Positions 26,891-45,117 of a stretch of DNA of 64,000 nt are shown piece after piece (position 1 is the stretch's first letter; every line of letters starts with the position of its first letter). The stretch spans positions 1-64,000 of the IMG/VR virus record IMGVR_UViG_3300045988_063800; one strand, written 5' to 3'. The notes beneath the pieces were generated by a model. That model worked only from the letters and a program-made list of their open reading frames with translations, was not told the DNA's origin and made no database searches. A program made the translations under genes and the position numbers. This DNA is from a virus.

Positions 26891-27048
26891 ACTTTCTTGC
26901 AGCACCGCAAGTTGTTGAAGATTAGCATTTTACAGACTTGGGAATTATAGAGTCCCACAAACATGCCCATTTCGACCGAAAATATTGTTGCTTTTGTCGG
27001 GTTTTATGGGTAAATTTGCAAAACCGAAACAAAAAAAATACCAAAACT

Positions 27049-28242
27049 ATGAAGTATTATATCGCAGCTAAAGAGAGCAAGAGGGGTAAGGACGGACGAA
27101 TAGCGGTGAAGATTTTGTTCCGCAGCGACGGTAAGGAGTTCGTTGTGTCAACAGGTATCTACGTGTTGACTGCGTTCTCGGGTCTTTCGATGTCGCCTAA
27201 AGAAACGAACTACAGGGCGAAGCTCAGAAGATTGACAAGCATCATTGACGATGTGGAGGCATATCTGCTGAACAATGCCGGCGCCGACACCGCAAAGATG
27301 AAGAGAGAGCTGACAACCCTGGTATCGGGCGAGGCGCATGAGGAGAAAGCGACGTGTCTTGCGGACTACATCGAAAGGTTCGCCGACACAAAGAGCCGCA
27401 AAGGCACGGCAGACCTCTACCGAATGTCGGCACGGAAGGTGCGCGAGTATGACGGCAGAGCTGTGTTCGGCAGCGTAGACAAAGCATGGCTTGACGGCTT
27501 CGAGCGATACATGGGCGAAGCGAGCGTGAACTACAAGGCTATCATGCTGCGCAACATACGCACGGTGTTCAACTGGGCGCTCGACAACGAGCTGACCACA
27601 AACTACCCATTCAGGCGGTACAAGATTAAGCAGGAGAAGGTAGCTATCAACAACATCAGCGTTGAGCAGCTGAGGGAGATACGAGATTGCGAAGTCGAGG
27701 AGTGGCAGCGCATATACCGCGACTTGTTCTTGTTGACGTTCTATCTTTGCGGCATCAACCCAATAGACCTGCTTACGCTCAAGCCGTCCAACGTACACAA
27801 CGGACGTATCAGGTACAAGAGGGCGAAGACTGGGCACTTGTACGACATACCCGTACCTCCCGAGGCGATGGAAATAATCAGACGCTACAAGGGCAAGGGA
27901 TGGCTTCTCTGTCCTCTTGACGTTTATACGAACTACCGCGACTTCTGCCATCACTGGAACGACGCACTCAAGAAAATCGGGCGCAAGGAGATTGTGCCGG
28001 ACAAGGTGGGCAGGCTGCGCAAGGTCGTCTGGCATCCGATAGCGGAAGGCATGACGGTGTACACCGCTCGTTACACATTCGCTTCTATTGGTGCAGAACT
28101 TGAGATACCTCGCGAGACTATTGCCCTTTGCCTCGGGCACTCCTGGGCAGACGTGACGGACCACTACATCGCCTACGGAACGAAACGAATTGACGATGCC
28201 GTGCGCAAGATTATTGATTACGTCAACAGCGACAAGGCGTAG
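27049..28242 (+). CDS. int: tyrosine integrase (Bacteroidota phage-integrase type)
   Basis: Start at ATG 27049 (MKYYIAAKE). It has an N-terminal SAM-like domain. The catalytic region contains ARYTFASIGA and LCLGHS, with HY at the end. Confidence 0.9.
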   Translation: MKYYIAAKESKRGKDGRIAVKILFRSDGKEFVVSTGIYVLTAFSGLSMSPKETNYRAKLRRLTSIIDDVEAYLLNNAGADTAKMKRELTTLVSGEAHEEKATCLADYIERFADTKSRKGTADLYRMSARKVREYDGRAVFGSVDKAWLDGFERYMGEASVNYKAIMLRNIRTVFNWALDNELTTNYPFRRYKIKQEKVAINNISVEQLREIRDCEVEEWQRIYRDLFLLTFYLCGINPIDLLTLKPSNVHNGRIRYKRAKTGHLYDIPVPPEAMEIIRRYKGKGWLLCPLDVYTNYRDFCHHWNDALKKIGRKEIVPDKVGRLRKVVWHPIAEGMTVYTARYTFASIGAELEIPRETIALCLGHSWADVTDHYIAYGTKRIDDAVRKIIDYVNSDKA

Positions 28243-31549: not shown

Positions 31550-32653
31550 TTACGAAGCTTCGGTCTGCGGTCTCTCGGGGATAACGAGCTGTTCGTCCTC
31601 GGGAATATCGAAGTCGTCGAAGTCATCGAAGTTGTTTGTCGGGTTGTTGTAAGCCTCGTTCTCTGCCGCCGCTCTTTCGGCACCAGGAATCATAAACGCT
31701 TGGAACGCTGCGGGCGACAGCTGGAGTCGCGTCACGATGTATCGCTGCGTCATGGAAACATCCGGGGCGTTGCCCGTGAAGTGACCCATCATCAACGCTA
31801 TCTGCTCCAACGGCACGTTCTTCAACGACAGGTTGGTTGCGAACGAGCGTCTACCCGTATGTGTTGATACAAACTTCCACTTCGGGCCTGTCTGCTCGCG
31901 ACCTGCCTGGTACACCTTAACCTGCTGGTCGATACCGCATGATTGGCAGAAGAAACGTATCGCGTCGTTGTAGGAAGGAACTGCAAGTGACTGCGGTTCG
32001 ATAGGTGAAGACGGAACGAGATACTCTCTTAGCCACGGGTGCACGGGAACCGTCACCTCATGGTTGGTCTTCTTTGATACATAAGTCAGGGTACGACCAT
32101 CAGAAGAGAGGTTTACGGGCGAGAGGCGCAGGCAGTCGGAGAAACGTGCTCCGCAAAGGCATTCAAGCATGAAGATGCGCTTTGCATGCCGTCTGCGTAC
32201 TGTCTTAGGGCGATACTCGTGTATCTTGCGTATCTCCTCGTCGGTGAGAAACACGGACTGTACCACCACCTTCTTTGCACGCAGCACGCGCGCGTAGGAC
32301 ATGGAAGGAATGTCTTTCGACTCTGCGTTCTCACGGATGATTGCGTTAATCTCTGCGCATATTGTGCGCACGGAGTTCGGCGCATAGGAAGCGTCCAGCT
32401 CTTCCTTCACGTCTCGCAGATTGTCGTCCGTGATGTCCTCCCACAATGGTGCGCGACCGATAACCTGCTTGAATTTATCAATGATCTTCACGCGTCCAGG
32501 GTGTTTCCAGATGAAAGCACCATAGAACTCGTGACGCCAACGATAGCCGTCATAAGTCGCAAAGTAACCTTTTCGGATTGCGCTGGAGTAGGTTTTCTGC
32601 TGCTCGGGAGTGAGCAGGTCCATCCAGCGTCTTGTGCTAAGTAGCTGTGTCAT
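31550..32653 (-). CDS. second tyrosine recombinase/integrase
   Basis: 367 aa. It carries CGARFSD (Arg), STHTGRRSFAT (HxxR), MMGH and QRY (Tyr), plus an acidic C-tail DDFDDFDIPEDE. Its start lies in a junction cassette. Confidence 0.88.
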   Translation of the reverse strand: MTQLLSTRRWMDLLTPEQQKTYSSAIRKGYFATYDGYRWRHEFYGAFIWKHPGRVKIIDKFKQVIGRAPLWEDITDDNLRDVKEELDASYAPNSVRTICAEINAIIRENAESKDIPSMSYARVLRAKKVVVQSVFLTDEEIRKIHEYRPKTVRRRHAKRIFMLECLCGARFSDCLRLSPVNLSSDGRTLTYVSKKTNHEVTVPVHPWLREYLVPSSPIEPQSLAVPSYNDAIRFFCQSCGIDQQVKVYQAGREQTGPKWKFVSTHTGRRSFATNLSLKNVPLEQIALMMGHFTGNAPDVSMTQRYIVTRLQLSPAAFQAFMIPGAERAAAENEAYNNPTNNFDDFDDFDIPEDEQLVIPERPQTEAS

Positions 32654-33183: not shown

Positions 33184-33621
33184 TTAGACGAGGGTGATGT
33201 CGTAAGTTGGCACTCCTAAAACTCTGCGTTTTCTTCCAGCAATGAACCCTGCCATTTTAAGAAGTGCTACGGCATTGGTCAGATACGGCTCGTCCACGAT
33301 AAAAAACGGGGAGCTGAAGCCTATAGCGGTACTATAACCAAAGCGACAATCCAAATAGTCAGGAAGGTCGTAATAGAAGGTTTTCCTTCCGTCGCTCCAT
33401 GTCTCGCTGGAGCTGTATTGCGTACAATCTGAAAAACCACATTTGGGCGTGCCTTCATAATCCACGAAACGAACTCCGAATATGACTAATTTCGCAGACA
33501 CATCGTTCTTCCGAAAGAACTCCACGACTGCGTTCTGAAATCCCGCCGTATCGAACGGTGGCGCTTTGAACCCTTTCTCCTTGAGAATGTCCTGCGCTCT
33601 TACAAATTTTGTTACTGCCAT
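33184..33621 (-). CDS. hypothetical protein
   Basis: 145-aa track ORF. A junction cassette lies upstream (33610-33675). Confidence 0.55.
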   Translation of the reverse strand: MAVTKFVRAQDILKEKGFKAPPFDTAGFQNAVVEFFRKNDVSAKLVIFGVRFVDYEGTPKCGFSDCTQYSSSETWSDGRKTFYYDLPDYLDCRFGYSTAIGFSSPFFIVDEPYLTNAVALLKMAGFIAGRKRRVLGVPTYDITLV

Positions 33622-33671
33622 AATTTAATCTATTTTATTGGTTAATAGCGACCTCTACAATACGAGGTCGT

Positions 33672-34645
33672 TAAGGCAAACATTGCTGATTGGTTCGTGA
33701 TTGGTTTGCGATTGGTTTATAATGCAAAGGTAGTGATTTTATCGCTATTTCACGAATAAATGCAGCACTTTTTAAAGTAATGACGTGCCTGTAGCCGTGT
33801 TGCGTGACTGTAAGGATTTGATATGTACCGGCTGAGAAATCGGCAGGGAGCCAGGTGTCAACCTGGTGGACGGCGGATGATACGAAGCCGGTATCATTAA
33901 AGTCGGCTGCACGGCACGTCATAAGGAACCGCAAAATTCCGTTGGTTGTATTGGGGGCACGATTGGAGACGGGTGCATTGCTGTAGGTGTTTGATTTAGC
34001 CCAGTAGTGGGGCTGGGTGCGCCGGTTGTTGCAACCGGCACCAACCCAGCCCTTATATACTGGGATATAAACGTTGTCTCCCCATCGCGCCCGATTTAGG
34101 CTTGCAATGGCTTGTCTTCCACAAGGAGTGTGGCGCATGGCTGTAAGGGATTGGTCTAAACACAAGCCGGGACGCGGCGGGCGGGATGAGAATCCAAGTT
34201 CCGCCGCGTGTGAGGCTTGGTGCAGCAAATGTACTCCTCCGGGGAAGACGAACGTCTGCGCTGACGTGAGTGGGCTTGAACGATGGCTGTGGCACATGGA
34301 TATAAACGAGCGATGTAGGTCAGGTTTCTCGATGACGACGTCGATAGGTTCGTATCGACGTCGTCATCGTTAGCAACCTGAGCGCTAAACGGATGCCATT
34401 CTTCAAGCCGAGGGCGGTGTGCGCCGCCTTGCACAGGCATTACGCCGTGGAACATTTCTGTAAGGTTTTGATTGTACCAGCCTTAGGATACGGGATACAC
34501 TCTGGATTGTCCAGAGGAAATCCCGTATCTTTGAGGCGGGTATATAAATGTGGCGTCCTGCTCTGCGCAGTTCCGTGTTCTCGGAAATTCATATAGGTTT
34601 GGTTGTGGATGCAGCGTTTGGACTGCATCCGTTTTTAGGCGTTTG
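33672..34645 (-). ncRNA. candidate large structured non-coding RNA immediately 3' of the reverse transcriptase
   Basis: 974 nt, visibly GC-richer than its flanks, with only mutually overlapping junk ORFs in 3 frames. Perfect hairpins lie at 34331-34368 (16 bp), 34487-34529 (10+7 bp), 34010-34052 (nested 8+8 bp) and 33851-33866. Confidence 0.35.
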
Positions 34646-35914
34646 TCAGAGATTGGCTACAAGTGTGTCGTATGCAGCTCGCGAGGTCAGCAATGCGTTG
34701 CGCATGAGACCGAGTGACATAAAGCCGTCAATACGCCCGGGTGTCTTCGCTCTGTTCGTTGTGACATTCTTTCCTCGTCCTCGTGAGATACATCCCACCT
34801 TCTGCTCCCTGGCAAAGCCAAGACCTCCGATGCGTCGCTTGCCGGTTGCGGTAGCACGCAGAGCGTCAAGAATGAACGTAGACAGCGTGTCGATGTCCTC
34901 CTTTACGTTGATTATCGGGAGAACCTGCGTTGCCCATGAGTGACCGTCATAACCCTTGTAGAGGTATCGGTTAATCATGTTTACCGATGTCGTGAGCGTT
35001 GCACCCCGTCTACAGCACGAACGCGACTCTATCTCCTTCTGAAACGTCTTGATGCGTGTAGAGGAAAGCGATATGCTGCTGCCCTTGATTGAATAGCCGA
35101 GGAACTTGAACCAATGGTTTGCGTCAAGATACTCCACCTTCTTCGGGTTGAGCTTCATCTGCATATTGCCAAGCTCCTCCGTAAGAATGTGCATCGCCTT
35201 AACGTAGTCACTACCGACATAAAGCATATCGTCGGAGTAGCGGGCGTAATAGCCTTCGAGCTGCGATAGTTTCTCGTCGATATGATACAGGATTACGTCT
35301 GCGAGCCACGAGGCTACGGAGCAACCCTGCTTTAACGACTGATACTTCTCGTGCAGCTCACCTTCGGGAGTGAAGTACAGGTCGGAATGATAGTAGTCGC
35401 GAAGGACATCTATCAGAGCCGAGTGTCCGTACTTTTCCTCCACCTTGTTGAAGGCTGCGTCAACGAACCCCAACGGAACACTGTCAAAATACTTCGACAG
35501 ATCGGACTTGAAGCCGAGCACATCGGAAGTCTGCAACGCACACATACGGCGTGACACCTCCTGCACAACCCTACCGCAGCCAATTCCCTTCTGATACGAG
35601 CGACAGCTCGGATGAACCATCTCGGGCATAAGCTCGAAGAGAAGGTCGTTGGCTATGGAAAGCAGCACTCGGTCGGCAGGCTCGTTCACATACACGGTAC
35701 GGAACTCGCCGTTGTCCTTCGGTATCTGCGCTGTATGTGGCGGCATTATCTTGTACTTGCCGTCACGGATACGCTGATACATGAGTGCGCGCGCCTCGGG
35801 TTTGGTGAGCTTGTAGAGCACGCCTTTGGATATGTCCTTGACAACACCTTTGGCGATTGCGTACTGCCAGCGTTCGGGGGCGAAAAACATCTCTAAAATC
35901 TTATCTTCTTTCAT
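34646..35914 (-). CDS. reverse transcriptase, class unassigned
   Basis: 422 aa with IPKDNGEFRTVYV, ADRVLLSIANDLL, FKSDLSKYFDSVP, LKQGCSVASWLADVIL, YARYSDDMLYV and FKFLGYSI, which correspond to RT motifs 1-7. Confidence 0.9.
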   Translation of the reverse strand: MKEDKILEMFFAPERWQYAIAKGVVKDISKGVLYKLTKPEARALMYQRIRDGKYKIMPPHTAQIPKDNGEFRTVYVNEPADRVLLSIANDLLFELMPEMVHPSCRSYQKGIGCGRVVQEVSRRMCALQTSDVLGFKSDLSKYFDSVPLGFVDAAFNKVEEKYGHSALIDVLRDYYHSDLYFTPEGELHEKYQSLKQGCSVASWLADVILYHIDEKLSQLEGYYARYSDDMLYVGSDYVKAMHILTEELGNMQMKLNPKKVEYLDANHWFKFLGYSIKGSSISLSSTRIKTFQKEIESRSCCRRGATLTTSVNMINRYLYKGYDGHSWATQVLPIINVKEDIDTLSTFILDALRATATGKRRIGGLGFAREQKVGCISRGRGKNVTTNRAKTPGRIDGFMSLGLMRNALLTSRAAYDTLVANL

Positions 35915-35979
35915 AATTCTGTTGTTATTTAATGGTTTGTAAATAAGTCAAGCGGTTACGATGTGTAACCACTTGTGGT

Positions 35980-36177
35980 TTAGGCTGCGGAACGTGTCTT
36001 GTACTCCACGATGGCGGCGAACGAACCGAAGCCGTTGCGCCATCTTGATTTCTCGTACTTCCATCCGTTTTCGCGAAGATACTTACGGCAGGCATAGCGT
36101 GACATAGGCATTGATTTGTCCAACGCTGCGTTCACACCCTCGTACTCGAAGGTGTAGAAAACAATTCTGTACTTCAT
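35980..36177 (-). CDS. small hypothetical protein (65 aa) between the structured element and the RT
   Basis: Track ORF 35980-36186. The ATG at 36177 lies in a cassette context (MKYRIVFYTFEYEG...). The stop lies in a GCC TAA box. Confidence 0.45.
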   Translation of the reverse strand: MKYRIVFYTFEYEGVNAALDKSMPMSRYACRKYLRENGWKYEKSRWRNGFGSFAAIVEYKTRSAA

Positions 36178-36237
36178 AATAAACAAATTTTGGTTTGATA
36201 GACTATCCGCTGCCGAACAACGGATAGGTTTAGGCTT

Positions 36238-36376
36238 GTCTGCGGCTCACGGACGGGTGCCTGTCTGTAAGCGTGTGATTTCAAAGCTTGCAAGGAAGGT
36301 CCCTTGCCTGACCGATAGGCGGGTAAGGGACCTTCTTCTGCGAAGCTTTCATAAATGATGCCGAGCCACCGCAGAC
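36238..36376 (-). ncRNA. candidate rod-like structured RNA element upstream of the RT unit
   Basis: The outer helix pairs 36238-36248 with 36363-36376. Inside it are an AAAGCTT/AAGCTTT helix and an 11-bp hairpin (36295-36305 with 36325-36335). The only ORF here is an implausible 70-aa one. Confidence 0.35.
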
Positions 36377-36404
36377 GGAACGGCAATTCCTTCTTGGCTG
36401 CGTA

Positions 36405-37397
36405 CTACTTCTTAGATGCAGGCTGTTTCTTCCACTCGGCAATCTTCTTTTCGACAGAGATGCCAGAGTCCTTGATAAGCTGCTTCATGGCACCGAGGAG
36501 TTCCCAACCTTCGAGGTTCGAGGCGAGATTCTCCATGCGTGCGAGCGACTGCTTTTCCGTGGTGCAGCCATTGAAGCGTGCGCCGTGGAACAGGATGAGG
36601 TTCTTCATCGTGAAGTACGCACCAGAACCCTTGTAGGCATCGGTGAACGCCTTTGACTGCTTGGTCTGCCAACGGAGATTGTGACGGTCACGGTTGAACG
36701 CTGCGACAGCCTTGTAGAGCTGATATGCGGACTTGGAATCGCCGATTGCTCTGATAGTCCATGCAATCGGAGCGAACACAACGTTCTCAATCTCGTCAGA
36801 GAACACGTTCTTGCCGAAGATGCGCTTGTAGAGGCGACCGCGGCATTTACGCTCCTTGATTTCCCCAACAACCTTGCGGAGGTGGTCGAGGTAGTCCTCT
36901 GCCATTTCAGTCACAACGTCCTTGTCGAACCAGCGGTTGCGCTCGCCAAACGACTCTGTGTCGCCGTGCTTGAGCATCTTATACTGCGCAAGCAACTCCT
37001 GCTCCACCATCTTCCACGAATACTCGTATCCGCGGTTCTGCAAGACCTCCGTGAAGTTGGGAGAATCCCACTTGCCCTCGTTCATCTCTCGGAGCATGTG
37101 GAACATCTGCGCCATAACCCAACGGCGATAGAGCTTGCCGTGTGCGATGTAGCGTCCTTCCATGATGCGAGAGAAAACAGGGTCGTCGTCAAGTACCTGT
37201 GTCGGAACGCCGTCCTTGACACGGACAATCATCTCTTCGCCCATAGGGAAGTAGTTGGAAACATCCACGCCCGCAGCCTTGAGTGCTTCGATACGTGCCT
37301 GTGCCGACTTCTTGCTGGGTTTCTGCTGACCTGCGCCGTTTGCGTTTGCTACCTCGTTGATAGTGAACTCACCTGAAATCATTACATTTCTTTTCAT
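36405..37397 (-). CDS. hypothetical protein (330 aa)
   Basis: Track ORF with the start in a junction cassette. No motif recognised. Confidence 0.65.
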   Translation of the reverse strand: MKRNVMISGEFTINEVANANGAGQQKPSKKSAQARIEALKAAGVDVSNYFPMGEEMIVRVKDGVPTQVLDDDPVFSRIMEGRYIAHGKLYRRWVMAQMFHMLREMNEGKWDSPNFTEVLQNRGYEYSWKMVEQELLAQYKMLKHGDTESFGERNRWFDKDVVTEMAEDYLDHLRKVVGEIKERKCRGRLYKRIFGKNVFSDEIENVVFAPIAWTIRAIGDSKSAYQLYKAVAAFNRDRHNLRWQTKQSKAFTDAYKGSGAYFTMKNLILFHGARFNGCTTEKQSLARMENLASNLEGWELLGAMKQLIKDSGISVEKKIAEWKKQPASKK

Positions 37398-37507
37398 AAT
37401 TCTTTTGTTTTTAAATTGTTAATAAAATGGTTAAAAATGTGAGTGAGATTTGCATCCCACTCTGATTTAGGCGGTTTATAGCAAATGCTACCATCTGCTA
37501 CCAAATG

Positions 37508-37963
37508 CTACGATTTGCTTGGTTCAACCCATGAGCGCAGGATAATCAAGTCCTTGTCGTTGGGAGATTGGTAGAACCAGCTGCCCCATTCCTTCTGCCA
37601 AGTAATGTAGCCTTGGATGATGTATGTAAGCAATCTGAGTTCTAACTTGCATCTCGCCACCTCACGTTGCTCACCATACATCATATCTTCGTCTGAGAGT
37701 TCTTTCTCAGACAAAGCCTTAAAGTAGCAACGTCTGTGTGACTCGGAACGCTCAGTAGGAACGGAGTGCTTATAATTCCTGTATGCCTTTTCTATTCCGT
37801 TCAACGCAACAGACAAAGGCAAACTACCATGTTGTTTCCAGTCTCTTGCTGTGATTTCCTCGCTAACAACAACCTCTCCGTTCACTCTACATGTTCTGTT
37901 TTGGAAGTTGATAGTGAACTTCGCACCATTCTCAACTTCATTGATAATCTCGTTGCATGTCAT
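37508..37963 (-). CDS. hypothetical protein
   Basis: 151-aa track ORF. Confidence 0.6.
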   Translation of the reverse strand: MTCNEIINEVENGAKFTINFQNRTCRVNGEVVVSEEITARDWKQHGSLPLSVALNGIEKAYRNYKHSVPTERSESHRRCYFKALSEKELSDEDMMYGEQREVARCKLELRLLTYIIQGYITWQKEWGSWFYQSPNDKDLIILRSWVEPSKS

Positions 37964-37991
37964 ACTCTTAATGATTTTGGTTAATAAATGT

Positions 37992-38128
37992 GGCGTGCCG
38001 AAGACCTCGGCGCATATCTGTACGATGCTGATTTGAAACAGTATGTGATGATCACGAGTCCACTCGCGTCAGTGGGAGACTCGTGATCAGTCACTACTGT
38101 TGAAATAAATATGGTCTTCCGGCACGCC
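37992..38128 (-). ncRNA. expanded 137-nt structured element occupying the hairpin slot of a junction cassette
   Basis: The outer ~15-bp stem pairs 37992-38006 with 38113-38128. The inner perfect 12-bp stem pairs 38049-38060 with 38078-38089 and encloses CACT/AGTG. Confidence 0.35.
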
Positions 38129-38151
38129 TTTTTAGGCTGCGCTGCCGTAGG

Positions 38152-38343
38152 TTAGCTCATGGAGCAAAAGAAGTCGTCGGGCGTGAAACACACGCCTCCG
38201 TACTCCTCTTCCACCTGCTCGTCAGACACAAGCTCGTCCGCAATGGCAAGCTCTCCGTATGACGGCTCGTAACCGAGGATGGCTTCGAGCATGGTGGATT
38301 TTAACTCTACAAGTTGTTCTCTCGATAGTTCTGATACATACAT
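38152..38343 (-). CDS. small acidic hypothetical protein
   Basis: 63-aa track ORF with a cassette start. Confidence 0.5.
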   Translation of the reverse strand: MYVSELSREQLVELKSTMLEAILGYEPSYGELAIADELVSDEQVEEEYGGVCFTPDDFFCSMS

Positions 38344-38386
38344 AATTCTAAAAGTTTTGGTTTATAGTGCCGTCTTTCGACGGCTT

Positions 38387-38671
38387 TTAGACTGTCAACC
38401 CGAGGTATTCTGATAGGGTATCTATCATAAGCTTGGTTACGCAGTCGTCATCTATGTCACTGACGTATTTGTTTACGTCACATCCATAGAGTTCTTCTCC
38501 TTCTTCGACTGCTTGCAATGCCTGTCTTGGAATGTCTCCTATAACGAAATCCAAATCAGCCTTCGTCTCGCAATCGTCAATGATACCATCTGGGATGTTG
38601 AGAAGCACGTTGTCTTTCTCATCAACGAGATGCCATTCATATTGTCCTGGAATAAATCTTACGTTGTTCAT
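38387..38671 (-). CDS. small acidic hypothetical protein
   Basis: 94-aa track ORF with a cassette start. The stop lies in GTC TAA AAG. Confidence 0.55.
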   Translation of the reverse strand: MNNVRFIPGQYEWHLVDEKDNVLLNIPDGIIDDCETKADLDFVIGDIPRQALQAVEEGEELYGCDVNKYVSDIDDDCVTKLMIDTLSEYLGLTV

Positions 38672-38721
38672 AATTCTTATGTTTTGGTTAATGTGCGCAG
38701 TTCTTAGCTGCGCTTTTTAGG

Positions 38722-38880
38722 CTAAACAAACTCGTAATCGTCATACATGCCATTGTAGCATTTTATAGCCGAGTGATTACGCTTGCATGTAATGGTGTCG
38801 TACTCTTGGCTAATTGAGCTTATTTTGTAAACACCATACTTGCATTTGCAGCAAACTTTTTCCTGAATGTCTGTAATCAT
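38722..38880 (-). CDS. small Cys-rich protein (52 aa)
   Basis: Hand-translated as MITDIQEKVCCKCKYGVYKISSISQEYDTITCKRNHSAIKCYNGMYDDYEFV. The stop TAG lies in a TAGCCTAAA box. Confidence 0.45.
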   Translation of the reverse strand: MITDIQEKVCCKCKYGVYKISSISQEYDTITCKRNHSAIKCYNGMYDDYEFV

Positions 38881-38928
38881 ATCTATAATGTTTTGGTTAT
38901 TGGTAGGGAGATTGCTCTCCCCGTTTGG

Positions 38929-39156
38929 CTATTCGATGTGTTGATAAGTCTCGCCGTTCTCTTTCTCGTAATCGGCATAGAATTCCTGATTATCTTCTGC
39001 CTCTACTATTTCTCCGCAGAAATTGTCGCTATCGAGAATGATTTCACTATTATTATAGGCGTCCTGCACCTTCTGTACAGCCTCTTCCTCACTCTCAGCA
39101 TCAACACTCACTACCTTGTTTAAAATCTCTGTGACTGATACATAATATCTCTTCAT
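38929..39156 (-). CDS. small acidic hypothetical protein
   Basis: 75-aa track ORF with a cassette start. Confidence 0.5.
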   Translation of the reverse strand: MKRYYVSVTEILNKVVSVDAESEEEAVQKVQDAYNNSEIILDSDNFCGEIVEAEDNQEFYADYEKENGETYQHIE

Positions 39157-39210
39157 AATTCTTGAAATTTGGTTAATAATGTCAGAGGGATTGCTCCCTC
39201 CGTTTTTAGG

Positions 39211-39471
39211 CTACCATTCTCTGCTATAGGCGAGCTTGCCATCGCCGGCTCTACGCATAGCGTCTGCAAAACTCTTAAAATTGACTGTTGATGCACTGCG
39301 TCCGTAACTACAGTAGCAGATATAATCCTTGCCGTATGAAGGACTGCCCCATCTCTCGCAAGTGTATATCCACATCTTTAGCTCGCCAACAATGATTGTG
39401 TATCCATCTTTCAAGTCGCTGTAAGCTGCACGCAAATTAGCTGTGCGTGTTCCTAAATCTATTTTCTTCAT
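39211..39471 (-). CDS. hypothetical protein
   Basis: Track ORF 39211-39504. The cassette ATG is at 39471 (MKKIDLGTRT). The stop is TAG in a TAGCCTAAA box. Confidence 0.5.
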   Translation of the reverse strand: MKKIDLGTRTANLRAAYSDLKDGYTIIVGELKMWIYTCERWGSPSYGKDYICYCSYGRSASTVNFKSFADAMRRAGDGKLAYSREW

Positions 39472-39520
39472 AATTGTTTGTATTTTGGTTTGTAGAGCCT
39501 GCATAACGCAGGCGTTTAGG

Positions 39521-39703
39521 CTAATCCCGAAGATGATGTTTCCATCTCAACGCTTTCGTGAGGGAGTTCACAACCTTAAAGGGAAGTTTGTAAAACCACC
39601 GACCCATATTGTTCAGCTGGATTGCATACTCCTTGTCAATTCTCTGAAAGCCACGCTCACCGCTATTGTCGATGGTGTAGCAGAAATACTTGTTGTCCTT
39701 CAT
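39521..39703 (-). CDS. small hypothetical protein
   Basis: Track ORF 39521-39709. The cassette ATG is at 39703. Confidence 0.45.
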   Translation of the reverse strand: MKDNKYFCYTIDNSGERGFQRIDKEYAIQLNNMGRWFYKLPFKVVNSLTKALRWKHHLRD

Positions 39704-39750
39704 AATCACAATAATTTGGTTTTTGTGAGGGAGATATGCCTCCCTCGATT

Positions 39751-40590
39751 TTAGGCTGCAACGCTCGGCTGTAATTGGTGTTCTTCGATTACCTCCTTTA
39801 TCAGCTCGTCCTCGTCACAATAATATCCCCAGCAGGAGTCAACCTCCTCCCAGTCGTAATCGTCCTCGTCCGCTCTCTCGCTGTCCTCGTAGACCTTCGT
39901 GTAACGCACCTTCTTCTCAAGAACAAAGCCTATCACGTCGCCCCACATCCATTTGCCGATACACTCTACTTCGCTTTCCATAGCGGAAACCGCACGTTTC
40001 TGCCAGTCCTTCGTTGTGCCGCCGTAACGTTTAATGAAACGCTCCTTTGTGCAATAGGAGAAGCCTTCAACGTAATCGCCCTGGCAGTAGCCGCGTGACG
40101 ACCATTCGTGTACCGCAATCTCTGTCTGACAATTTGAGAGAAGATAGATAAAATCCTTCTCGTCAAGAGCTTCGGAGAGCCAGCTACGGATGCCGTCCTG
40201 CACCTCGTCGGGTGTAAAGCTCTGCATCTCATGCCATTGTCTTTCCTCGTTTCCGTATCCGAAATAATGCTCAAGATACCACATGTGGCCCGAACGGTCG
40301 TAACGAAAGCGTAGAGAGTCGCTAAGGTACTCGTTGATGTACTTGATGAATTTCTTCTGCGGTACATACTTGCAAGCAAGCTCGCATACTGCGTCGGCAA
40401 GCGAATAGTCGTTTGAGTAGAACAGCTCCTCGTAGTTTGAGGCTTCCGACAATCTATTCCTGTCGCTGTAATCGAAAAGATGTACGCCTAACATATCCCA
40501 GTCCTTGCACGGACACGGAGGATATTTGTCGCGACGAATCTTGATTCTGTAATCACCAATTTCTTCTGTTTTGATAATGTCTTCACTCAT
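39751..40590 (-). CDS. hypothetical protein (279 aa), acidic
   Basis: Track ORF 39751-40596, whose first codon is TTG. The ATG is at 40590. It contains SRGYCQGDY...WGDVIGF...DSCWGYY, but I cannot name the family. Confidence 0.65.
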   Translation of the reverse strand: MSEDIIKTEEIGDYRIKIRRDKYPPCPCKDWDMLGVHLFDYSDRNRLSEASNYEELFYSNDYSLADAVCELACKYVPQKKFIKYINEYLSDSLRFRYDRSGHMWYLEHYFGYGNEERQWHEMQSFTPDEVQDGIRSWLSEALDEKDFIYLLSNCQTEIAVHEWSSRGYCQGDYVEGFSYCTKERFIKRYGGTTKDWQKRAVSAMESEVECIGKWMWGDVIGFVLEKKVRYTKVYEDSERADEDDYDWEEVDSCWGYYCDEDELIKEVIEEHQLQPSVAA

Positions 40591-40672
40591 ATTCAATTCT
40601 TTTTAGGGTTAATATTGTTCCGTTGCCGGTGTCGCTCCGATTGTGGTTTCTTTCCCCAACGGATAAGCCATG

Positions 40673-40990
40673 TTACTCTGACTCCTTGTAGTAGCAGCGC
40701 ACTTCGCCCGCCTCCTTTGCGAGGAGAGGGAGTATCTTCAGCGCGTTCTTGTTGCATACGTTCAGCTCGATGCTCACCACCTCGTCGTAGAACATCTTGA
40801 ACTCGTTCTCTTTAATGATGCCGAGGTGTCTTTCGTCCGTAATGAAATTGTAGAGCTGGTATGAGTCTTTGTCCTCACTGATGAATATCGCAAGAGCGTT
40901 GCCGCCGTAGATGCCAATCTCGTACTTTCTCTCGTTCTGACGGATGATTGCCTTGCCCATCTTGTCAGTCCATTTCCATTGTAATGCCAT
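40673..40990 (-). CDS. hypothetical protein
   Basis: 105-aa track ORF with a cassette start. Confidence 0.55.
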   Translation of the reverse strand: MALQWKWTDKMGKAIIRQNERKYEIGIYGGNALAIFISEDKDSYQLYNFITDERHLGIIKENEFKMFYDEVVSIELNVCNKNALKILPLLAKEAGEVRCYYKESE

Positions 40991-41037
40991 AATTCTTCTG
41001 TTTGTTGGTTAATTGCATCCGCATTTCTGCGGACTTT

Positions 41038-41193
41038 TTAGACAGGAGACGTTCTGAAACCGAAAATATAGCCGTTGTCACGCATTTCACGTGCGTACTG
41101 CAACGCCTCGCTTCTCGAACTGAATATCTGCGGAGTCATACAATAACCCCATGAAGTCCACATCTCCAATTTTGTTCTGATTGACTTTTCCAT
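41038..41193 (-). CDS. small hypothetical protein (51 aa)
   Basis: Hand-translated as MEKSIRTKLEMWTSWGYCMTPQIFSSRSEALQYAREMRDNGYIFGFRTSPV. It has a cassette start, and its stop lies in a GTCTAAAAAG box. Confidence 0.45.
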   Translation of the reverse strand: MEKSIRTKLEMWTSWGYCMTPQIFSSRSEALQYAREMRDNGYIFGFRTSPV

Positions 41194-41240
41194 AATTCTG
41201 TAATCTGTTAGTTAGTTGCACCTCCCCAAAGGGAGGCGGT

Positions 41241-41780
41241 TTAGGCGGTAACACACTGCTGTTCGAGCACGCAGGCAATCTCCGAAAGCGTGTCTTGAAA
41301 ATTGTACTTGATGCCGAACGTTCCAAAGGCTTTAAAATACCAATCCATAAGATACGCCCTGTCCTCGTCAGCCTGTTTGCTGTCTTCCGCTGCATCCAAA
41401 CGTGCAACCATTTGGGGAAACAGACGGAAGTAGTCGTCGCCGGCATACTCCGAACTCCAATATGTGCCCGTGATGTGAGCGAGATAGTCTTCCTCGATGT
41501 TGGCGAAATTGCCGTCCATGCGATGATTTTGCATGTGGAGATATTCCTTCATCTCTCTGTTCGCTTTCATAGTAAAATCCCAAGCGAGAGATTGAATATT
41601 GAAACCCTCGAAATCGACAAGGTATTCCTCTATGTCCTCAGAGTTCTCGTAGTCTTCCAAACACTCACGATAAAGAGCCTCTATCGCTTTGGCAAAATTC
41701 TCGACACCGATGTAGTCGGCTACCTTCTCGACAACCTCGCCTTTGTTGTTCATAACAACTTCTACAATATTCTTTTCCAT
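41241..41780 (-). CDS. hypothetical acidic protein
   Basis: 179-aa track ORF with a cassette start. Confidence 0.6.
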   Translation of the reverse strand: MEKNIVEVVMNNKGEVVEKVADYIGVENFAKAIEALYRECLEDYENSEDIEEYLVDFEGFNIQSLAWDFTMKANREMKEYLHMQNHRMDGNFANIEEDYLAHITGTYWSSEYAGDDYFRLFPQMVARLDAAEDSKQADEDRAYLMDWYFKAFGTFGIKYNFQDTLSEIACVLEQQCVTA

Positions 41781-41837
41781 AATTCGTTGTTTTTAGGTTA
41801 TACTTGCACTCTCCACAGGGGAGAGTCTTTAGGCTAA

Positions 41838-42113
41838 TCAGAACCACCAAGGAATAAAACATGCTATGTTTTTAGCCTCCTTGTGGGCTATTCTTCTCGT
41901 CTTCTTGTCAACAGAGCCATCAAGACATTGCGACATAGCACGTTTGAATAATGCGCCCATCACCCAATAAATAGGAATGTAATTATTAGGGCATTTTTCA
42001 ACGTCAATACAGCCTGAATGTAAAATCTCGCAAATACACTTGTCAAAAGTATCTTTGTCTTCAAATTTACGAAGAACTTCATGGCACTTGTCTAAAAAAT
42101 CTTTTTCTGTCAT
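41838..42113 (-). CDS. hypothetical protein
   Basis: 91-aa track ORF with a cassette start. Confidence 0.55.
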   Translation of the reverse strand: MTEKDFLDKCHEVLRKFEDKDTFDKCICEILHSGCIDVEKCPNNYIPIYWVMGALFKRAMSQCLDGSVDKKTRRIAHKEAKNIACFIPWWF

Positions 42114-42170
42114 AATTCTAAATGTTGGTTAATAGAAATCCCCACCCGTGATAGTGAGGATTGATTTAGG

Positions 42171-42422
42171 CTAACCGAACATGAGCGAGTCAATCATTTT
42201 GTAGAATGTGCCCTCGTCGGTGCTGTTGTAGAGATAGTGTACAAACTTGCGTCTGTCCTCCATTCTCAAGACTCTGTAATAATGCTTGAAGTCGGAGAAA
42301 TTGCCGTTTATCCACGACTCGTGCATTATCTGCATCATTTCGTACTCGCCTGCCACCTCGTAGGACTTAGCCTGCTGCGCAAGCGTTCTGCTTCTCCTTT
42401 CGGATGCTCTTTTTGTTGCCAT
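42171..42422 (-). CDS. hypothetical protein
   Basis: 83-aa track ORF with a cassette start. Confidence 0.5.
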   Translation of the reverse strand: MATKRASERRSRTLAQQAKSYEVAGEYEMMQIMHESWINGNFSDFKHYYRVLRMEDRRKFVHYLYNSTDEGTFYKMIDSLMFG

Positions 42423-42486
42423 AATTCAGAAATTAATTTGGTTAAACGTTGTTCTGTGCAGATAGGCTGCACAGATTTGTTGAGGC

Positions 42487-42855
42487 TCAATAGCCACGAT
42501 ACAGGATTCTCTTGACAAGCGCATACTCGTAACCTCCGTCCTGCCCTACGCAGTAGGTAAAGCTCGGCTTGTTATTACGCAGCTCAACCCACAGACGGGA
42601 AAGTATGCCACAGCTCTCGATTTTGCCGTACTTCATGTTGTGGAATACCTCGTCGTACTTTCTTTTCTGACAGCCAAGTGCTTGACAGAAGCCGTCAGAC
42701 AGCTCACGCAGAGCGCTGTCGGTAAGCTCGAACGGACACCTCTTATAATGCTTGTTGTTGTAGATTTGTCCGCTCAAAAAATCGTTCATCGTGAATTGTC
42801 CTGCATCGGCAGCTCTAAGCAAGCCGACGAGTGTTTTGTAAGTTCTTTTCTTCAT
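42487..42855 (-). CDS. hypothetical protein
   Basis: 122-aa track ORF with a cassette start. Confidence 0.55.
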   Translation of the reverse strand: MKKRTYKTLVGLLRAADAGQFTMNDFLSGQIYNNKHYKRCPFELTDSALRELSDGFCQALGCQKRKYDEVFHNMKYGKIESCGILSRLWVELRNNKPSFTYCVGQDGGYEYALVKRILYRGY

Positions 42856-42908
42856 AATCTTATTTTTGTTGGTTGGTAATGTAGGCGCACGGAATTTGTG
42901 CGCCCCGT

Positions 42909-43076
42909 TTAGGACTCTTCCACAGATAAAGGCTCACAATCTACACTTCCGACCATGTTGGCGTTGCCGTCAAGCCATGCTTTGTAAGCTATTTCTTTCG
43001 CTTCTTCCTCGTTGTCGGCTTGCACTTCCACAAAACCATAAGAGGTTTCTTTCAGGTTTACACAATATGTTTTCAT
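42909..43076 (-). CDS. small acidic protein (55 aa)
   Basis: Track ORF 42909-43112. The cassette ATG is at 43076 (MKTYCVNLKE). Confidence 0.45.
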   Translation of the reverse strand: MKTYCVNLKETSYGFVEVQADNEEEAKEIAYKAWLDGNANMVGSVDCEPLSVEES

Positions 43077-43135
43077 AATTTTCAATTTGTTGGTTGTAGT
43101 TCCTGCGTGCAATCGTCACGCAGGATTTTAAGGCG

Positions 43136-43528
43136 TTAGCGACGGAAACGGCTCATATCCACGCCGTAAATCTTCGCAAGGCGCAGAATACCATTGGCGA
43201 TGCGCTCAAACCATGTACGTACAAACTGCGAGGTTCTTGCGTCTGTTCTGCAATAACCCCACTCCGTGCCAACCTTGGCAATGTCATAGTTGGTAAAGGC
43301 TACGTTCACGGTAGAGCAAAGACCGGCAATCCATTCAGTCAGCAAATCAAGAGCGGACATTCTGCGTCTGTCATCTTTAAATTTCTCTACATAGAACGTG
43401 TCAAGCGCAAACTCAATGCGTTCCTTGTCAGACATAGACTCTACATCTACATCATCGGAAGATATGGAGTCAAGGATGTAAGCATACATTTTGCCGTTCA
43501 CTTTGTAATCTCGTGGGTGCTTTTTCAT
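43136..43528 (-). CDS. hypothetical protein
   Basis: 130-aa track ORF with a cassette start. Confidence 0.6.
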   Translation of the reverse strand: MKKHPRDYKVNGKMYAYILDSISSDDVDVESMSDKERIEFALDTFYVEKFKDDRRRMSALDLLTEWIAGLCSTVNVAFTNYDIAKVGTEWGYCRTDARTSQFVRTWFERIANGILRLAKIYGVDMSRFRR

Positions 43529-43592
43529 AATCCTAAAATTTTAAATGGTTGATAAAATGAACCCGTGACAAAACGTAACGGGTTGTTCAAAC

Positions 43593-43775
43593 TCAATCGT
43601 GATAAGCAATGGCTACAATCTCAACCATAGCGTCGTGAAAATCATTCTCAGATTTCGGATCATTGTAGTCGGTCATACGTGCGTTGTGCATCTTGCGAGC
43701 TGCAATCTTTGCCTTGTTTATCTGATACATCAACGAACGTTCAAAATTCTTGTCGCAATTTCTGTCTCTTAGCAT
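43593..43775 (-). CDS. small hypothetical protein
   Basis: 60-aa track ORF with a cassette start. Confidence 0.45.
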   Translation of the reverse strand: MLRDRNCDKNFERSLMYQINKAKIAARKMHNARMTDYNDPKSENDFHDAMVEIVAIAYHD

Positions 43776-43829
43776 AATTCAATGATTTATTTGGTTAATA
43801 GTAGCGGAGTTGTATCTCCGCTGTTTAGG

Positions 43830-43994
43830 CTATCTGCCGAAGTATTTGCGCTCGAAATCTTCGTAACTCTCGCAGTTGAAGACAACCGCAACGCATTTCA
43901 AACCACGGGCAATTAAACTCTGTTTGACTTCTTTTGTAAGTTGTTCGCCTGTGTACACCTCGAAAGGAGGGAACACGAAATAATTCTGTGTCAT
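43830..43994 (-). CDS. small hypothetical protein (54 aa)
   Basis: Hand-translated as MTQNYFVFPPFEVYTGEQLTKEVKQSLIARGLKCVAVVFNCESYEDFERKYFGR, with a TAG stop in a TAGCCTAAA box. Confidence 0.45.
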   Translation of the reverse strand: MTQNYFVFPPFEVYTGEQLTKEVKQSLIARGLKCVAVVFNCESYEDFERKYFGR

Positions 43995-44054
43995 AATAAT
44001 TCTGTTTGGTTAATGGCAGACGGCACGAATTATCGTACCGCCCGATTTTAGGCT

Positions 44055-44222
44055 CTACGGCTCGATGCGTGAAAATACGGCGTAGGTATGTCTGCCTGTC
44101 TCGCTCTTCTTCATAAGCTCCGCAAACTTCACTGCGTCCTCAAGGGTTGCAAACTCGCGCACGACTTTCGGTGTAAAACTCGGGTAAAACTCAAGCACTA
44201 CAAAATTTTTCTCTGTGTTCAT
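44055..44222 (-). CDS. small hypothetical protein (55 aa)
   Basis: Track ORF 44055-44255. The cassette ATG is at 44222 (MNTEKNFVVLEF). Confidence 0.45.
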   Translation of the reverse strand: MNTEKNFVVLEFYPSFTPKVVREFATLEDAVKFAELMKKSETGRHTYAVFSRIEP

Positions 44223-44269
44223 AATTCTTTGATTTGGTTGGTTAATAGACCCCACAATCGTGGGGATTT

Positions 44270-44560
44270 TTAGGCTGCGGACTTATCTTTTACGTACTTC
44301 GCAAGGCTCTCGAACGTTTCGTCGTTCTCCTCTGCATCGAAAAAATCGTAAAATCTGAAAGTCACGACGCGGCAATCCCTGCTCTCGCCCTTCTTGTCGC
44401 TCGTGCTGCAAACATCTACATAAAAGCTGTAGCCGGAGGAGTAAAACTCAATGCACATGCCTACATGATTGTTAAAATACATATCACGCTGCATCTTCTG
44501 AACCTTAGGGAGAATTTCCTTTGCGAGTCTTCTCGCCTCTGTGAGTCTTTTTTCTGTCAT
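44270..44560 (-). CDS. hypothetical protein
   Basis: 96-aa track ORF with a cassette start. The stop is GCC TAA. Confidence 0.55.
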   Translation of the reverse strand: MTEKRLTEARRLAKEILPKVQKMQRDMYFNNHVGMCIEFYSSGYSFYVDVCSTSDKKGESRDCRVVTFRFYDFFDAEENDETFESLAKYVKDKSAA

Positions 44561-44611
44561 AATTCTGTGATTTAATTGGTTAATACTGCGGGAGGCTCAG
44601 AACCTCCCTTT

Positions 44612-44929
44612 TTAGACCAGTAGCTCAAACCCTAAAATGCTATTGACAAACTTTGCGTCGCCTGTACAAAAGCGTCCTGGGCGTGTAAAATTACCGCCTT
44701 TCTTGTAGTAGATGCGTGTGGCGTAAAATCCAGCGTTCACGCTGTATCTCACATCGTACACCGACGTTCTCGTCAAGATGTAATGCTTGTGTTCGTACAG
44801 CCATTGCGCCTCTGCTTTGTGTACGGATATTCTCCCGAGCCTTACCTGTAGCTCAGGATTCAACCGAGCTTCGTTGAGAGCGCAACAATCGCACACGTCA
44901 TCGAATCGTTTTGCGTTCAAATTAATCAT
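44612..44929 (-). CDS. hypothetical protein
   Basis: 105-aa track ORF. Confidence 0.55.
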   Translation of the reverse strand: MINLNAKRFDDVCDCCALNEARLNPELQVRLGRISVHKAEAQWLYEHKHYILTRTSVYDVRYSVNAGFYATRIYYKKGGNFTRPGRFCTGDAKFVNSILGFELLV

Positions 44930-44982
44930 ATCATTATAAATTTATTGGTTAATAGTCCGTGCGCATGATTGCGCACAGGGTT

Positions 44983-45117
44983 TTAGACAATGTAAGCCAC
45001 GGTAAGAAATTTGCCGTCGTAACCAAGGAACTCAACGTGTGTGTAGATTTCCTGCATCTTCGCGAATACGCTCTCCATGAACAGAGAACCCTCGCACTTA
45101 ATTCTTCGTGTTGCCAT
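44983..45117 (-). CDS. small hypothetical protein (44 aa)
   Basis: Hand-translated as MATRRIKCEGSLFMESVFAKMQEIYTHVEFLGYDGKFLTVAYIV, with a cassette start. Confidence 0.4.
   Translation of the reverse strand: MATRRIKCEGSLFMESVFAKMQEIYTHVEFLGYDGKFLTVAYIV

Follow-up and report, generated by a model that had tools for sequence, protein, structure and literature searches.

A complete UG27 reverse transcriptase system with repeated structured RNA modules in a temperate phage of Prevotellaceae

Introduction

Retrons comprise a reverse transcriptase (RT) and an msr-msd non-coding RNA (ncRNA), from which msDNA is produced. DRT2 (UG2), DRT9 (UG28), and DRT10 are Class 2 defense RTs that copy a template within their own cis-encoded ncRNA. 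Mestre et al. (NAR 2022, PMC9226505) defined UG27 as a Class 2 UG/Abi system of gut phages in which the RT is accompanied by proteins of clusters 337 and 346. In the same study, a 'putative ncRNA with three long stem-loops' was described in one intergenic region, and no enrichment of UG27 in defense islands was found. Cis-encoded ncRNAs are used by all of the related Class 2 RTs (PMC9226505). A preprint of September 2026 (10.64898/2026.09.22.753630) appears to cover UG27 'ncRNA arrays', judging from the terms that recur in it (UG27, 74 times; 'ncRNA array', 10 times; cDNA, 24 times; and 'cDNA hairpin', twice).

We analyzed 64,000 nt of viral DNA (IMG/VR record IMGVR_UViG_3300045988_063800, positions 1 to 64,000), referred to as the window, which carries a UG27 locus on its minus strand. 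As in the 2022 description, the RT and the partner proteins RTas337 and RTas346 match their family profiles over the full length, the RT has no fused domain, the carrier is a gut Bacteroidales phage, and a long stem-loop non-coding region adjoins the RT. One intergenic ncRNA was described in 2022, whereas a repeated module was found here in seven copies at three sites. None of the differences disqualifies the locus from membership; it is a typical complete copy of the described system, with three genes and seven RNA modules. The biology is real but already known, and the locus adds little as a discovery. Three observations go beyond the 2022 description: the dispersal of modules over three sites around the RT and both partner genes, a AGCCUAAA leader common to the modules and ordinary gene junctions, and compensatory hairpin turnover between phages with 98% identical RTs.

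The RT resembles those of DRT9, DRT10, and DRT2 in being a stand-alone protein of about 400-500 aa adjoined by a structured ncRNA that is encoded in cis and in the same orientation. However, each of those systems has a single ncRNA, which usually lies 5' of the RT; in UG27, the ncRNA is a multi-copy array placed mainly on the 3' side of the RT, and there are two dedicated accessory genes. They are found in host defense islands, whereas UG27 is phage-borne and not enriched there (PMC9226505). The modules resemble a retron RNA in that an inverted-repeat basal stem closes a long variable hairpin, possibly copied to hairpin DNA, but they occur as many tandem units, unlike the single unit of a retron.

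Identification of the UG27 RT and its partner genes

The 422-aa RT reported by the first-pass annotation was present at 34646-35914 (minus strand), with an ATG start and an intact YSDD catalytic box in its sequence; all six palm motif strings that had been read from it, including YARYSDDMLYV, were in the ORF. That annotation left the RT unclassified and proposed its classification with HMM profiles. The PADLOC profile RT_UG27 matched the RT end to end (696.6 bits, E = 2.7e-210), aligning residues 3-422 to profile positions 2-420 of 420. The second-best PADLOC profile was UG26 (105 bits), followed by UG17 and Drt9 (83.6 bits each). Pfam detected RVT_1 only (residues 64-276) and no other known fused domain, which is a Class 2 trait. 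The label 'unclassified' was replaced by UG27 at 697 bits. On these profile matches, the RT is assigned to UG27 as a full-length member, with RTas337 and RTas346 upstream. The genes of the locus are as follows.

34646..35914 (-), UG27 reverse transcriptase (PADLOC RT_UG27, Pfam RVT_1)
35980..36186 (-), optional small ORF, 68 aa from TTG or 65 aa from ATG, inside an insertion of about 240 nt
36405..37397 (-), RTas337 accessory gene, 330 aa, Mestre cluster 337 (PADLOC E = 2e-107)
37508..37963 (-), RTas346 accessory gene, 151 aa, Mestre cluster 346 (PADLOC E = 4.7e-53, positions 5-146 of 147)

Proteins of both clusters, 337 and 346, are therefore encoded adjacent to the RT. The first-pass annotation did not recognize the placement of the largest RNA-like segment 3' of the RT; this placement is the UG27 norm, and a stem-loop ncRNA beside the RT had been predicted in 2022. 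The two accessory genes and a structured module at 37982-38147 were missed in that annotation. RTas337 has 976 homologues, none of which carries a functional name from any source. Pfam and PHROGs returned nothing for RTas337 and RTas346, and NCBIfam returned nothing for RTas337. Foldseek searches of the PDB gave no fold match for the AF2 model of either RTas337 (pLDDT 77, best E of 0.34) or RTas346 (pLDDT 83, best E of 2.5).

The ORF upstream of the RT was present and had been given as 65 aa, which is its length from ATG; it is 68 aa from TTG. The insertion that contains it (35987-36226) was missing in loci whose RTs were 98-99% identical to that of the window (L002, L004, L005, L008, L009, L010, L015, and L020). 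The small ORF does not belong to the core of the UG27 system.

The carrier is a temperate Caudoviricetes phage of Prevotellaceae. Phage genes in the window encode TerL, portal, primase, RecT, and integrases, and the two integrase genes encode tyrosine recombinases. The RT was 99% identical to one on a contig of Leyella stercorea (cultured isolate MSK.21.24, NZ_JAHQUY010000014.1), and relatives were found in Segatella, Bacteroides, and Alistipes genomes. The carriage agrees with that of UG27 in gut phages or prophages of Bacteroidetes or Firmicutes. A megablast search of GenBank phages with 33600-38200 gave no match.

Structured RNA modules around the three genes

The non-coding spacers of the locus are paralogous copies of one element of about 140-165 nt, folded on the RT strand. 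Five copies are 3' of the RT, one is between RTas337 and the RT, and one is upstream of RTas346, so that the order on the minus strand is M1, RTas346, RTas337, M2, the optional small ORF, the RT, and D1-D5. In each module, the basal stem has two parts; the further elements are a 5' junction (CAyUUUAU), a long fast-evolving hairpin, and a conserved 3' junction (J3), AUCnnnnnnUACAGnnAUGCnCC, with the consensus AUC-N6-UACAG-N2-AUGCnCC. The modules were searched with R1, a covariance model built only from D4 orthologs.

37982..38147 (-), ncRNA module M1, upstream of RTas346 (R1 37.3 bits, E = 1.3e-8, full length; nhmmer 6e-13)
36229..36389 (-), ncRNA module M2, the 'rod' (R1 35.8 bits, E = 3.4e-8)
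34430..34568 (-), ncRNA module D1, the first 3' of the RT (R1 32.6 bits, E = 2.5e-7)
34268..34412 (-), ncRNA module D2, with a divergent J3 (ACAUCGCUCGUUUAUAUCCAUGUGCC) and a 17-bp apical stem
34113..34249 (-), ncRNA module D3 (R1 13.9 bits, E = 0.029)
33946..34110 (-), ncRNA module D4, the seed of R1 (R1 198 bits)
33772..33937 (-), ncRNA module D5 (R1 40.9 bits, E = 1.5e-9)
33622..33771 (-), 3' tail of the array (TRF and sequence reading: 11-nt repeat, junction hairpin, and leader of the next gene)

R1 had six matches in the window, each of them on the minus strand within the UG27 locus, and six modules were aligned in register among the window copies. D2 was not detected by R1 in this search; it is in register with the other modules, and a weak HMM match was found at the orthologous site in locus L001. 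M1 folds into a basal stem, a long hairpin, and the J3 motif UCAAAUCAGCAUCGUACAGAUAUGCGCC (z = -6.6). Members of the direct-repeat family D4 are present in M2, at 33968-33997, and at 34128-34157. The array ends in 3.2 copies of an 11-nt repeat at 33683-33718 (TRF), after which come a junction hairpin of the ordinary type and the leader of the following gene. Promoter and terminator scans gave counts at chance level.

The downstream segment (33672-34645, minus strand) had a minimum free energy of -370 kcal/mol, compared with -259 +/- 9.6 for dinucleotide shuffles (z = -11.6), which bore out the proposal of an RT with an adjoining structured RNA. The individual folds read by eye held to different degrees. 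The hairpin at 34487-34529 has the 10-bp stem, 3x3 internal loop, 7-bp stem, and CAA loop described (z = -6.8), and its 10-bp and 7-bp CAA hairpin belongs to D1. The perfect stem at 34331-34368 is in place, with 17 bp instead of 16 (z = -7.5). The CAA loop at 34010-34052 is also present, on stems of 9 and 10 bp and not 8 and 8 (z = -5.6), and the hairpin at 33851-33866 exists with 6 bp but is non-significant alone (z = -1.5). The upstream rod given as 36238-36376 was recovered, as 36235-36380 folds in this way (z = -5.3). The two bracketing segments, presented as separate elements, are copies of one repeated module.

Conservation and covariation of the modules

Across 32 sources, R1 gave 98 matches, and two successive sets of 80 loci searched with a sequence HMM of the module gave 362 and 134 matches, respectively. 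All of these were on the RT strand, and module matches were confined to UG27 loci. About 800 nt of the 3' segment was aligned by nhmmer in nearly all of 80 IMG/VR loci, including those with 70% identical RTs and the other gene order; the two gene orders of UG27 loci, A and B, are circular permutations. The related loci examined also had a long, structured non-coding region on the 3' side of the RT, which is the family norm, in agreement with the conserved structured ncRNA with long stem-loops beside the RT of UG27. The J3 motif and the module shape were kept where the RT was only 61-70% identical, in both gene orders, and modules in relatives always adjoined the RT, RTas337, or RTas346. The modules thereby accompany the RT down to an identity of ~63% with that of the window. 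In a more distant clade, R1 and the HMM miss most modules, and their presence there is drawn from one locus, L112 (RT 64% identical), in which the 887-nt spacer between the RT and RTas346 (z = -7.5) contains five hairpins, each followed by AUCrGnnnnnUAAAGnnAUGUGCC.

The default combination of MAFFT and RNAalifold gave only six pairs for the paralogous modules and no pairs for diverse D4 orthologs. The latter result was obtained because the variable hairpins misalign, and alignment with a covariance model was therefore needed. For D4, double changes were present in 13 of the 37 pairs in the RNAalifold consensus of 11 close orthologs; ortholog alignments showed compensatory types in 14 of 40 pairs for D2 and 16 of 23 for D3. 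In alignment A4 (94 distinct sequences), 89.3% of the cells were paired, compared with 49.7% in shuffles and 31-42% when the partners were slid, and in A8, an independent set from bacterial genomes, 88.0% were paired compared with 50.2%, percentages that are inflated by fitting the alignments to the model structure. The slid and shuffled controls argue against fitting as the sole cause. The covariation scores were 0.743 versus 0.174 (A4, with double changes in 35 of 35 pairs) and 0.766 versus 0.197 (A8). Covariation, proposed earlier as a check on the hairpins, was strong (88-89% of cells paired versus 50% in shuffles). On the RT-sense strand, G-U pairs outnumbered A-C pairs (106 versus 70), which favors folding of the sense strand.

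Alternative explanations

The modules may instead be cis-acting RNA elements of the small-gene operon (terminators, processing sites, or stabilizers), elaborated from junction hairpins and independent of the RT. M1 and M2 are located between genes in the manner of junction cassettes, and the modules share their AGCCUAAA leader with ordinary gene junctions, so that they may have a role in operon expression. In the window, 17 copies of the octamer AGCCTAAA were counted where about two would be expected; 16 of these are minus-strand copies at gene junctions, with a short hairpin after each. The octamer also precedes M1 and D4 and follows M2. However, matches to R1 were confined to the UG27 locus, and the other junctions (about 12) had none. 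J3 and the module shape persist at 61-70% RT identity and in both gene orders, always beside the RT, RTas337, or RTas346, and five tandem copies without intervening genes would make no sense as junction signals. We consider this alternative quite unlikely.

Action of the modules as folded single-stranded DNA, either as attC-like sites for a tyrosine recombinase or as replication signals, was judged very unlikely. The module layout is suggestive, in that hairpins conserved in structure and variable in sequence are flanked by conserved boxes, arrayed or intergenic, and strictly strand-specific; two integrase genes are within the window, and gene orders A and B, as circular permutations of each other, are suggestive of recombination among the modules. 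On the other hand, the modules track the RT and the two partner genes across the loci examined, the excess of G-U over A-C pairs is on the RT-sense strand, and the related Class 2 RTs all have cis-encoded ncRNAs (PMC9226505).

The region 33672-34645 is non-coding, as there was no codon periodicity and frameshifting indels were common in close relatives. Among 17 close relatives, substitutions were even over the three codon positions (8/7/6, 19/16/16, 6/5/7, and 9/11/7 variable sites in successive 100-nt bins), and indels of 1, 2, 11, and 46 nt were observed among phages with 98-99% identical RTs. The segment had been called ORF-free; it does contain a 208-aa ORF (33671-34297), which is spurious, and the segment was correctly read as non-coding. 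The first-pass annotation had named a decayed or frameshifted gene as the finding that would contradict its proposal, and the codon-position and indel results spoke against one. A decayed gene, or one in a recoded genetic code, is extremely unlikely: one sense frame is open for about 230 codons, including the 208-aa ORF, and ORFs occur at similar positions in some relatives, but all three stop codons are present in every frame, so that recoding opens no frame, neither Pfam nor PADLOC matched the 208-aa ORF, and the same bases show strong RNA covariation.

Known RT classes other than UG27 were also compared. For a group II intron, TIGR04416 scored 87.4 bits against a cut-off of 300, and Rfam gave no intron RNA. 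For a retron, NF038233 (St85 RT) scored 34.7 bits against a cut-off of 235, Rfam gave no msr or other retron RNA, and NAxxH and VTG had been found lacking in the earlier reading of the sequence. For a DGR, comparison of the modules with the rest of the window gave only chance matches of 11-13 nt and none longer than 13 nt, and no DGR RT profile was among the listed matches. Profiles of DRT9, DRT10, and DRT2 scored about 8-fold below UG27 (Drt9, 83.6 versus 696.6 bits), and NCBIfam Drt2 gave 36 bits against a cut-off of 390. Rfam, which the first-pass annotation had suggested searching, matched no intron, retron, or other RNA family at the gathering threshold (whole window) or at E <= 5 (33500-38300). 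The search of 33500-38300 returned only chance-level miRNA and snoRNA matches.

The view that the RT is not of the retron, DGR, or group II type was upheld, with scores below the curated cut-offs and nothing from Rfam. An RT of one of these classes with an overlooked RNA or repeat partner is almost certainly not present: weak matches were obtained to TIGR04416 (87 bits), the retron St85 RT (35 bits), and solved group II, retron, and Cas1-fused RTs, but the group II and retron scores are far below their cut-offs (300 and 235 bits) and the 697 bits of UG27, Rfam gave neither a group II domain nor a retron msr at gathering or E-value thresholds, and no module copy elsewhere in the window would fit a DGR variable repeat.

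Proposed mechanism and significance

The reading that we consider likely is that of a complete UG27 system in which the module RNAs would be copied by the RT. The UG27 locus would be transcribed as RNA, and the RT would bind each module via its conserved junctions and basal stem. The variable hairpin would then serve the RT as a template for a short cDNA of hairpin shape, in the way that DRT2, DRT9, and DRT10 copy the template in their own ncRNA; the putative template use, priming, and product of the RT on the modules are drawn from this analogy. Support for a hairpin cDNA is indirect and comes from the terms that recur in the 2026 preprint. RTas337 and RTas346 would act as cofactors or effectors. 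We speculate that the product might serve the phage or prophage (e.g., in counter-defense, superinfection exclusion, or addiction) and not a host defense island.

A bolder extension is that the modules form a self-expanding, fast-diversifying array, with a repertoire of hairpin cDNAs acting as sequence- or shape-specific phage effectors, such as decoys for host defenses, and with new modules and permuted gene orders arising by RT- or repeat-mediated duplication; this is conceivable but rather unlikely.

UG27 is among the few prokaryotic RT families that are found mainly in phages and not in host defense islands. The window provides a clean and complete example of UG27, and as a cultured isolate of Leyella stercorea has a contig with a 99% identical RT, the system could be experimentally tractable.

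The RT locus as a UG27 system

The RT gene was recovered with every motif string quoted in the first-pass annotation, an intact YSDD box, and RVT_1 (residues 64–276) as the sole Pfam domain. It had been regarded as unclassified; however, residues 3–422 aligned with positions 2–420 of the 420-position PADLOC profile RT_UG27 (696.6 bits, E = 2.7e-210), identifying a full-length UG27 member, and the runners-up were UG26 (105 bits) and UG17 and Drt9 (84 bits each). As the scores against the NCBIfam group II and retron models were far below their cut-offs, as were those for DRT2/3/4, and Rfam gave no match to the locus at the gathering threshold or a looser E-value, group II and retron readings were rejected; a DGR was contradicted by tests on RT profiles and repeats. 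The nearest solved structures were group II, retron, Cas1-fused, or DRT9 RTs, all at E of at least 1e-9.

UG27, a Class 2 UG/Abi RT without a fused domain, was defined by Mestre et al. 2022 (PMC9226505) as a triad of the RT with RTas337 and RTas346, and both partner genes were found upstream.

Genes of the UG27 locus
34646–35914, minus strand, RT (422-aa ORF, UG27 profile)
35980–36186, minus strand, optional small ORF (65–68 aa) between module M2 and RT, inside insertion 35987–36226
36405–37397, minus strand, RTas337 (330 aa, upstream of RT, PADLOC E = 2e-107)
37508–37963, minus strand, RTas346 (151 aa, upstream of RTas337, PADLOC E = 4.7e-53)

Judged from these profile matches, the locus is a complete UG27 system, an ordinary member of a published family rather than the unfamiliar arrangement first described. 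The family was reported in >1,400 dereplicated gut-phage genomes (hosts Bacteroidetes and Firmicutes) without enrichment in defence islands, together with a putative conserved ncRNA of three long stem-loops, intergenic beside the RT, for which the authors stated that experimental validation was needed (PMC9226505).

A domain search of the accessory proteins, with Pfam among the profiles, gave no match, and confident AF2 models of RTas337 and RTas346 had no fold match in the PDB. Among phages with RTs 98–99% identical to that of the window (loci L001–L016), RTas346 was either ~99% or only ~56–59% identical to the window copy, and the mean pairwise nucleotide difference across this region (37508–38147) was ~0.4, indicating that the end of the locus with RTas346 and M1 has undergone mosaic exchange. 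A 10-nt tandem unit (3.5 copies, 37485–37519) between RTas346 and RTas337 could represent protein-binding sites. The 240-nt insertion holding the small ORF was present in some phages with 98–99% identical RTs and absent from many others; the ORF, which carries the typical junction leader, resembles a mobile cassette within the UG27 locus.

Non-coding and structured segments

The 974-nt segment 3' of RT (33672–34645) had been described as ORF-free, and the check for a decayed gene came out against coding. One frame is open for ~230 codons, giving a 208-aa ORF with no match in Pfam or PADLOC. In an alignment of 17 relatives whose RTs are nearly identical, variable sites were even over the three codon positions and indels of 1, 2, 11, and 46 nt occurred, contradicting a dead protein gene; a recoded genetic code does not open a frame, as all three stop codons are present in every frame. 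Coding was ruled out by these results taken together.

The minimum free energy of the segment was −370 kcal/mol versus −259 ± 9.6 in dinucleotide shuffles (z = −11.6). The hairpins read by eye were reproduced at 34331–34368 (17-bp stem, z = −7.5), 34487–34529 (10 bp, 3x3 loop, and 7 bp with a CAA loop, z = −6.8), and 34010–34052 (9 + 10 bp, CAA loop, z = −5.6), as was the upstream rod (36235–36380, z = −5.3); that at 33851–33866 folded but was weak (z = −1.5). The hairpin-rich segments are real and far beyond chance.

A repeated module

A motif common to 33968–33997, 34128–34157, and 36252–36281 was found, and six stretches of the window aligned in register. From 5' to 3', the module comprises a basal-stem 5' strand, a CAyUUUAU junction, a variable long hairpin, the AAAUCAAAnCCUUACAGnnAUGCnCC 3' junction, and the basal-stem 3' strand. 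The covariance model R1, for which the D4 orthologs of 11 close relatives were the sole source, had six matches in the 64-kb window, all on the minus strand and none outside the UG27 locus.

Modules in the window
37982–38147, minus strand, M1, new site upstream of RTas346 (R1 E = 1.3e-8)
36229–36389, minus strand, M2, the rod (R1 E = 3.4e-8)
34430–34568, minus strand, D1 (R1 E = 2.5e-7)
34268–34412, minus strand, D2, divergent 3' junction (assigned by alignment and ortholog covariation)
34113–34249, minus strand, D3 (R1 E = 0.029)
33946–34110, minus strand, D4 (R1 seed)
33772–33937, minus strand, D5 (R1 E = 1.5e-9)

By alignment, the ORF-free segments are copies of one repeated module. At the 3' end of the array lies an 11-nt tandem unit (sense AACCAATCNCN, 3.2 copies, 33683–33718), which could be protein-binding sites.

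Conservation and covariation

In nearly all of 80 IMG/VR loci, nhmmer aligned ~800 nt of the 3' segment. Across 32 sources, R1 detected 98 modules, every one on the RT strand. In the 98-module alignment, 89.3% of cells were standard pairs versus 49.7% when shuffled and 31–42% with slid partners, and the covariation score was 0.743 versus 0.174 for the control, with double changes in 35 of 35 pairs; an independent bacterial-genome set gave 88.0% versus 50.2% and 0.766 versus 0.197. Fitting these alignments to the model favours pairing, but the margin over the shuffled and slid controls is large, and RNAalifold, run on ortholog alignments made blind to structure, also gave many compensatory pairs. 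Module sequences diverged among close relatives at about double the rate of the RT gene (mean pairwise difference 0.035–0.066 versus 0.027), and apical hairpins were rewritten with pairing kept, as in D4 of the related locus L014 compared with the window.

G-U pairs outnumbered A-C pairs in the modules (106 versus 70), which modestly favours folding on the sense strand. Together with the linkage to the RT, this excess makes it unlikely that the modules act as attC-like single-stranded DNA.

The window has the order M, 346, 337, M, RT, array (order A), and other loci RT, array, 346, 337, M (order B); we infer that the two orders are one cycle, circularly permuted. Order-B loci (L043, L059, and many more) have extra module copies ~1.1–1.3 kb past the RT stop (e.g., L043:6208–6567), seen by nhmmer as a second copy of profile positions ~445–672 with 37-nt motifs recurring every 157–166 nt; array length thus varies among phages, and 3–7 modules were detected per locus. 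In a distant clade (RT 61–65% identical), sequence models mostly fail to find modules. The one locus analysed in detail there, L112, has an 887-nt RT-to-346 spacer (z = −7.5) in which AUCrGnnnnnUAAAGnnAUGUGCC follows each of five long hairpins, and both module and 3' junction are therefore judged to be old features of the family.

Phage and host context

The window carries a tailed-phage genome with TerL, portal, primase, RecT, a replication initiator, and two tyrosine integrases.

Other phage genes
12451–13626, minus strand, RtcB-like RNA ligase (PHROG 1075, E = 6e-127)
26938–28242, plus strand, tyrosine integrase 1 (profile match)
31550–32653, minus strand, tyrosine integrase 2 (profile match)

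RtcB-like ligases can mend tRNAs cut by host anticodon nucleases. The integrase genes are <5 kb apart, and two small genes separate the UG27 locus from the second, which is ~1 kb downstream. A contig of Leyella stercorea MSK.21.24 (51.8 kb) carries a 99% identical RT; RTs 98–99% identical are present on many IMG/VR contigs, and RTs 56–71% identical in genome assemblies that are mainly from Bacteroidales (Segatella copri, Bacteroides, Alistipes, Butyricimonas, and Muribaculaceae). A megablast search with the locus (33600–38200) had no match among GenBank phages.

Proposed mechanism

The small-gene array repeats a junction cassette consisting of (stop)AGCCTAAA, a short variable hairpin, ATTAACCAAA, ~10 nt, and a GAATTATG start, with 16 minus-strand sites at 34095–45762 (e.g., 38716–38723, 39205–39212, and 44269–44276). 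The AGCCTAAA octamer, which occurs 17 times in the window versus ~2 expected and also lies 5' of M1 and D4 and 3' of M2, could serve the phage as a promoter, terminator, or processing signal. The AGCCUAAA leader common to modules and ordinary gene junctions would suit modules that are purely cis-regulatory, but we consider this quite improbable, as the linkage of the modules across clades is exclusively to UG27 genes.

Covarying modules in a strand-specific array are co-inherited with the RT and two dedicated partner genes, and the pairing of an RT with structured RNA had been correctly read in the first-pass annotation. The related Class 2 RTs DRT2, DRT9, and DRT10 use cis-encoded ncRNAs, and by analogy we propose that the modules would be transcribed, that the RT would recognise their conserved junctions and basal stem, and that it would then reverse-transcribe the variable hairpin. 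In term counts for a preprint dated 2026-09-24 (10.64898/2026.09.22.753630), UG27 occurred 74 times, "ncRNA array" 10, cDNA 24, "cDNA hairpin" 2, and cryo-EM 4 times, with zero counts for "protein-primed" and msDNA; this vocabulary is the sole, indirect hint about the RT product. Speculatively, UG27 may serve these phages in counter-defence, exclusion, or addiction.
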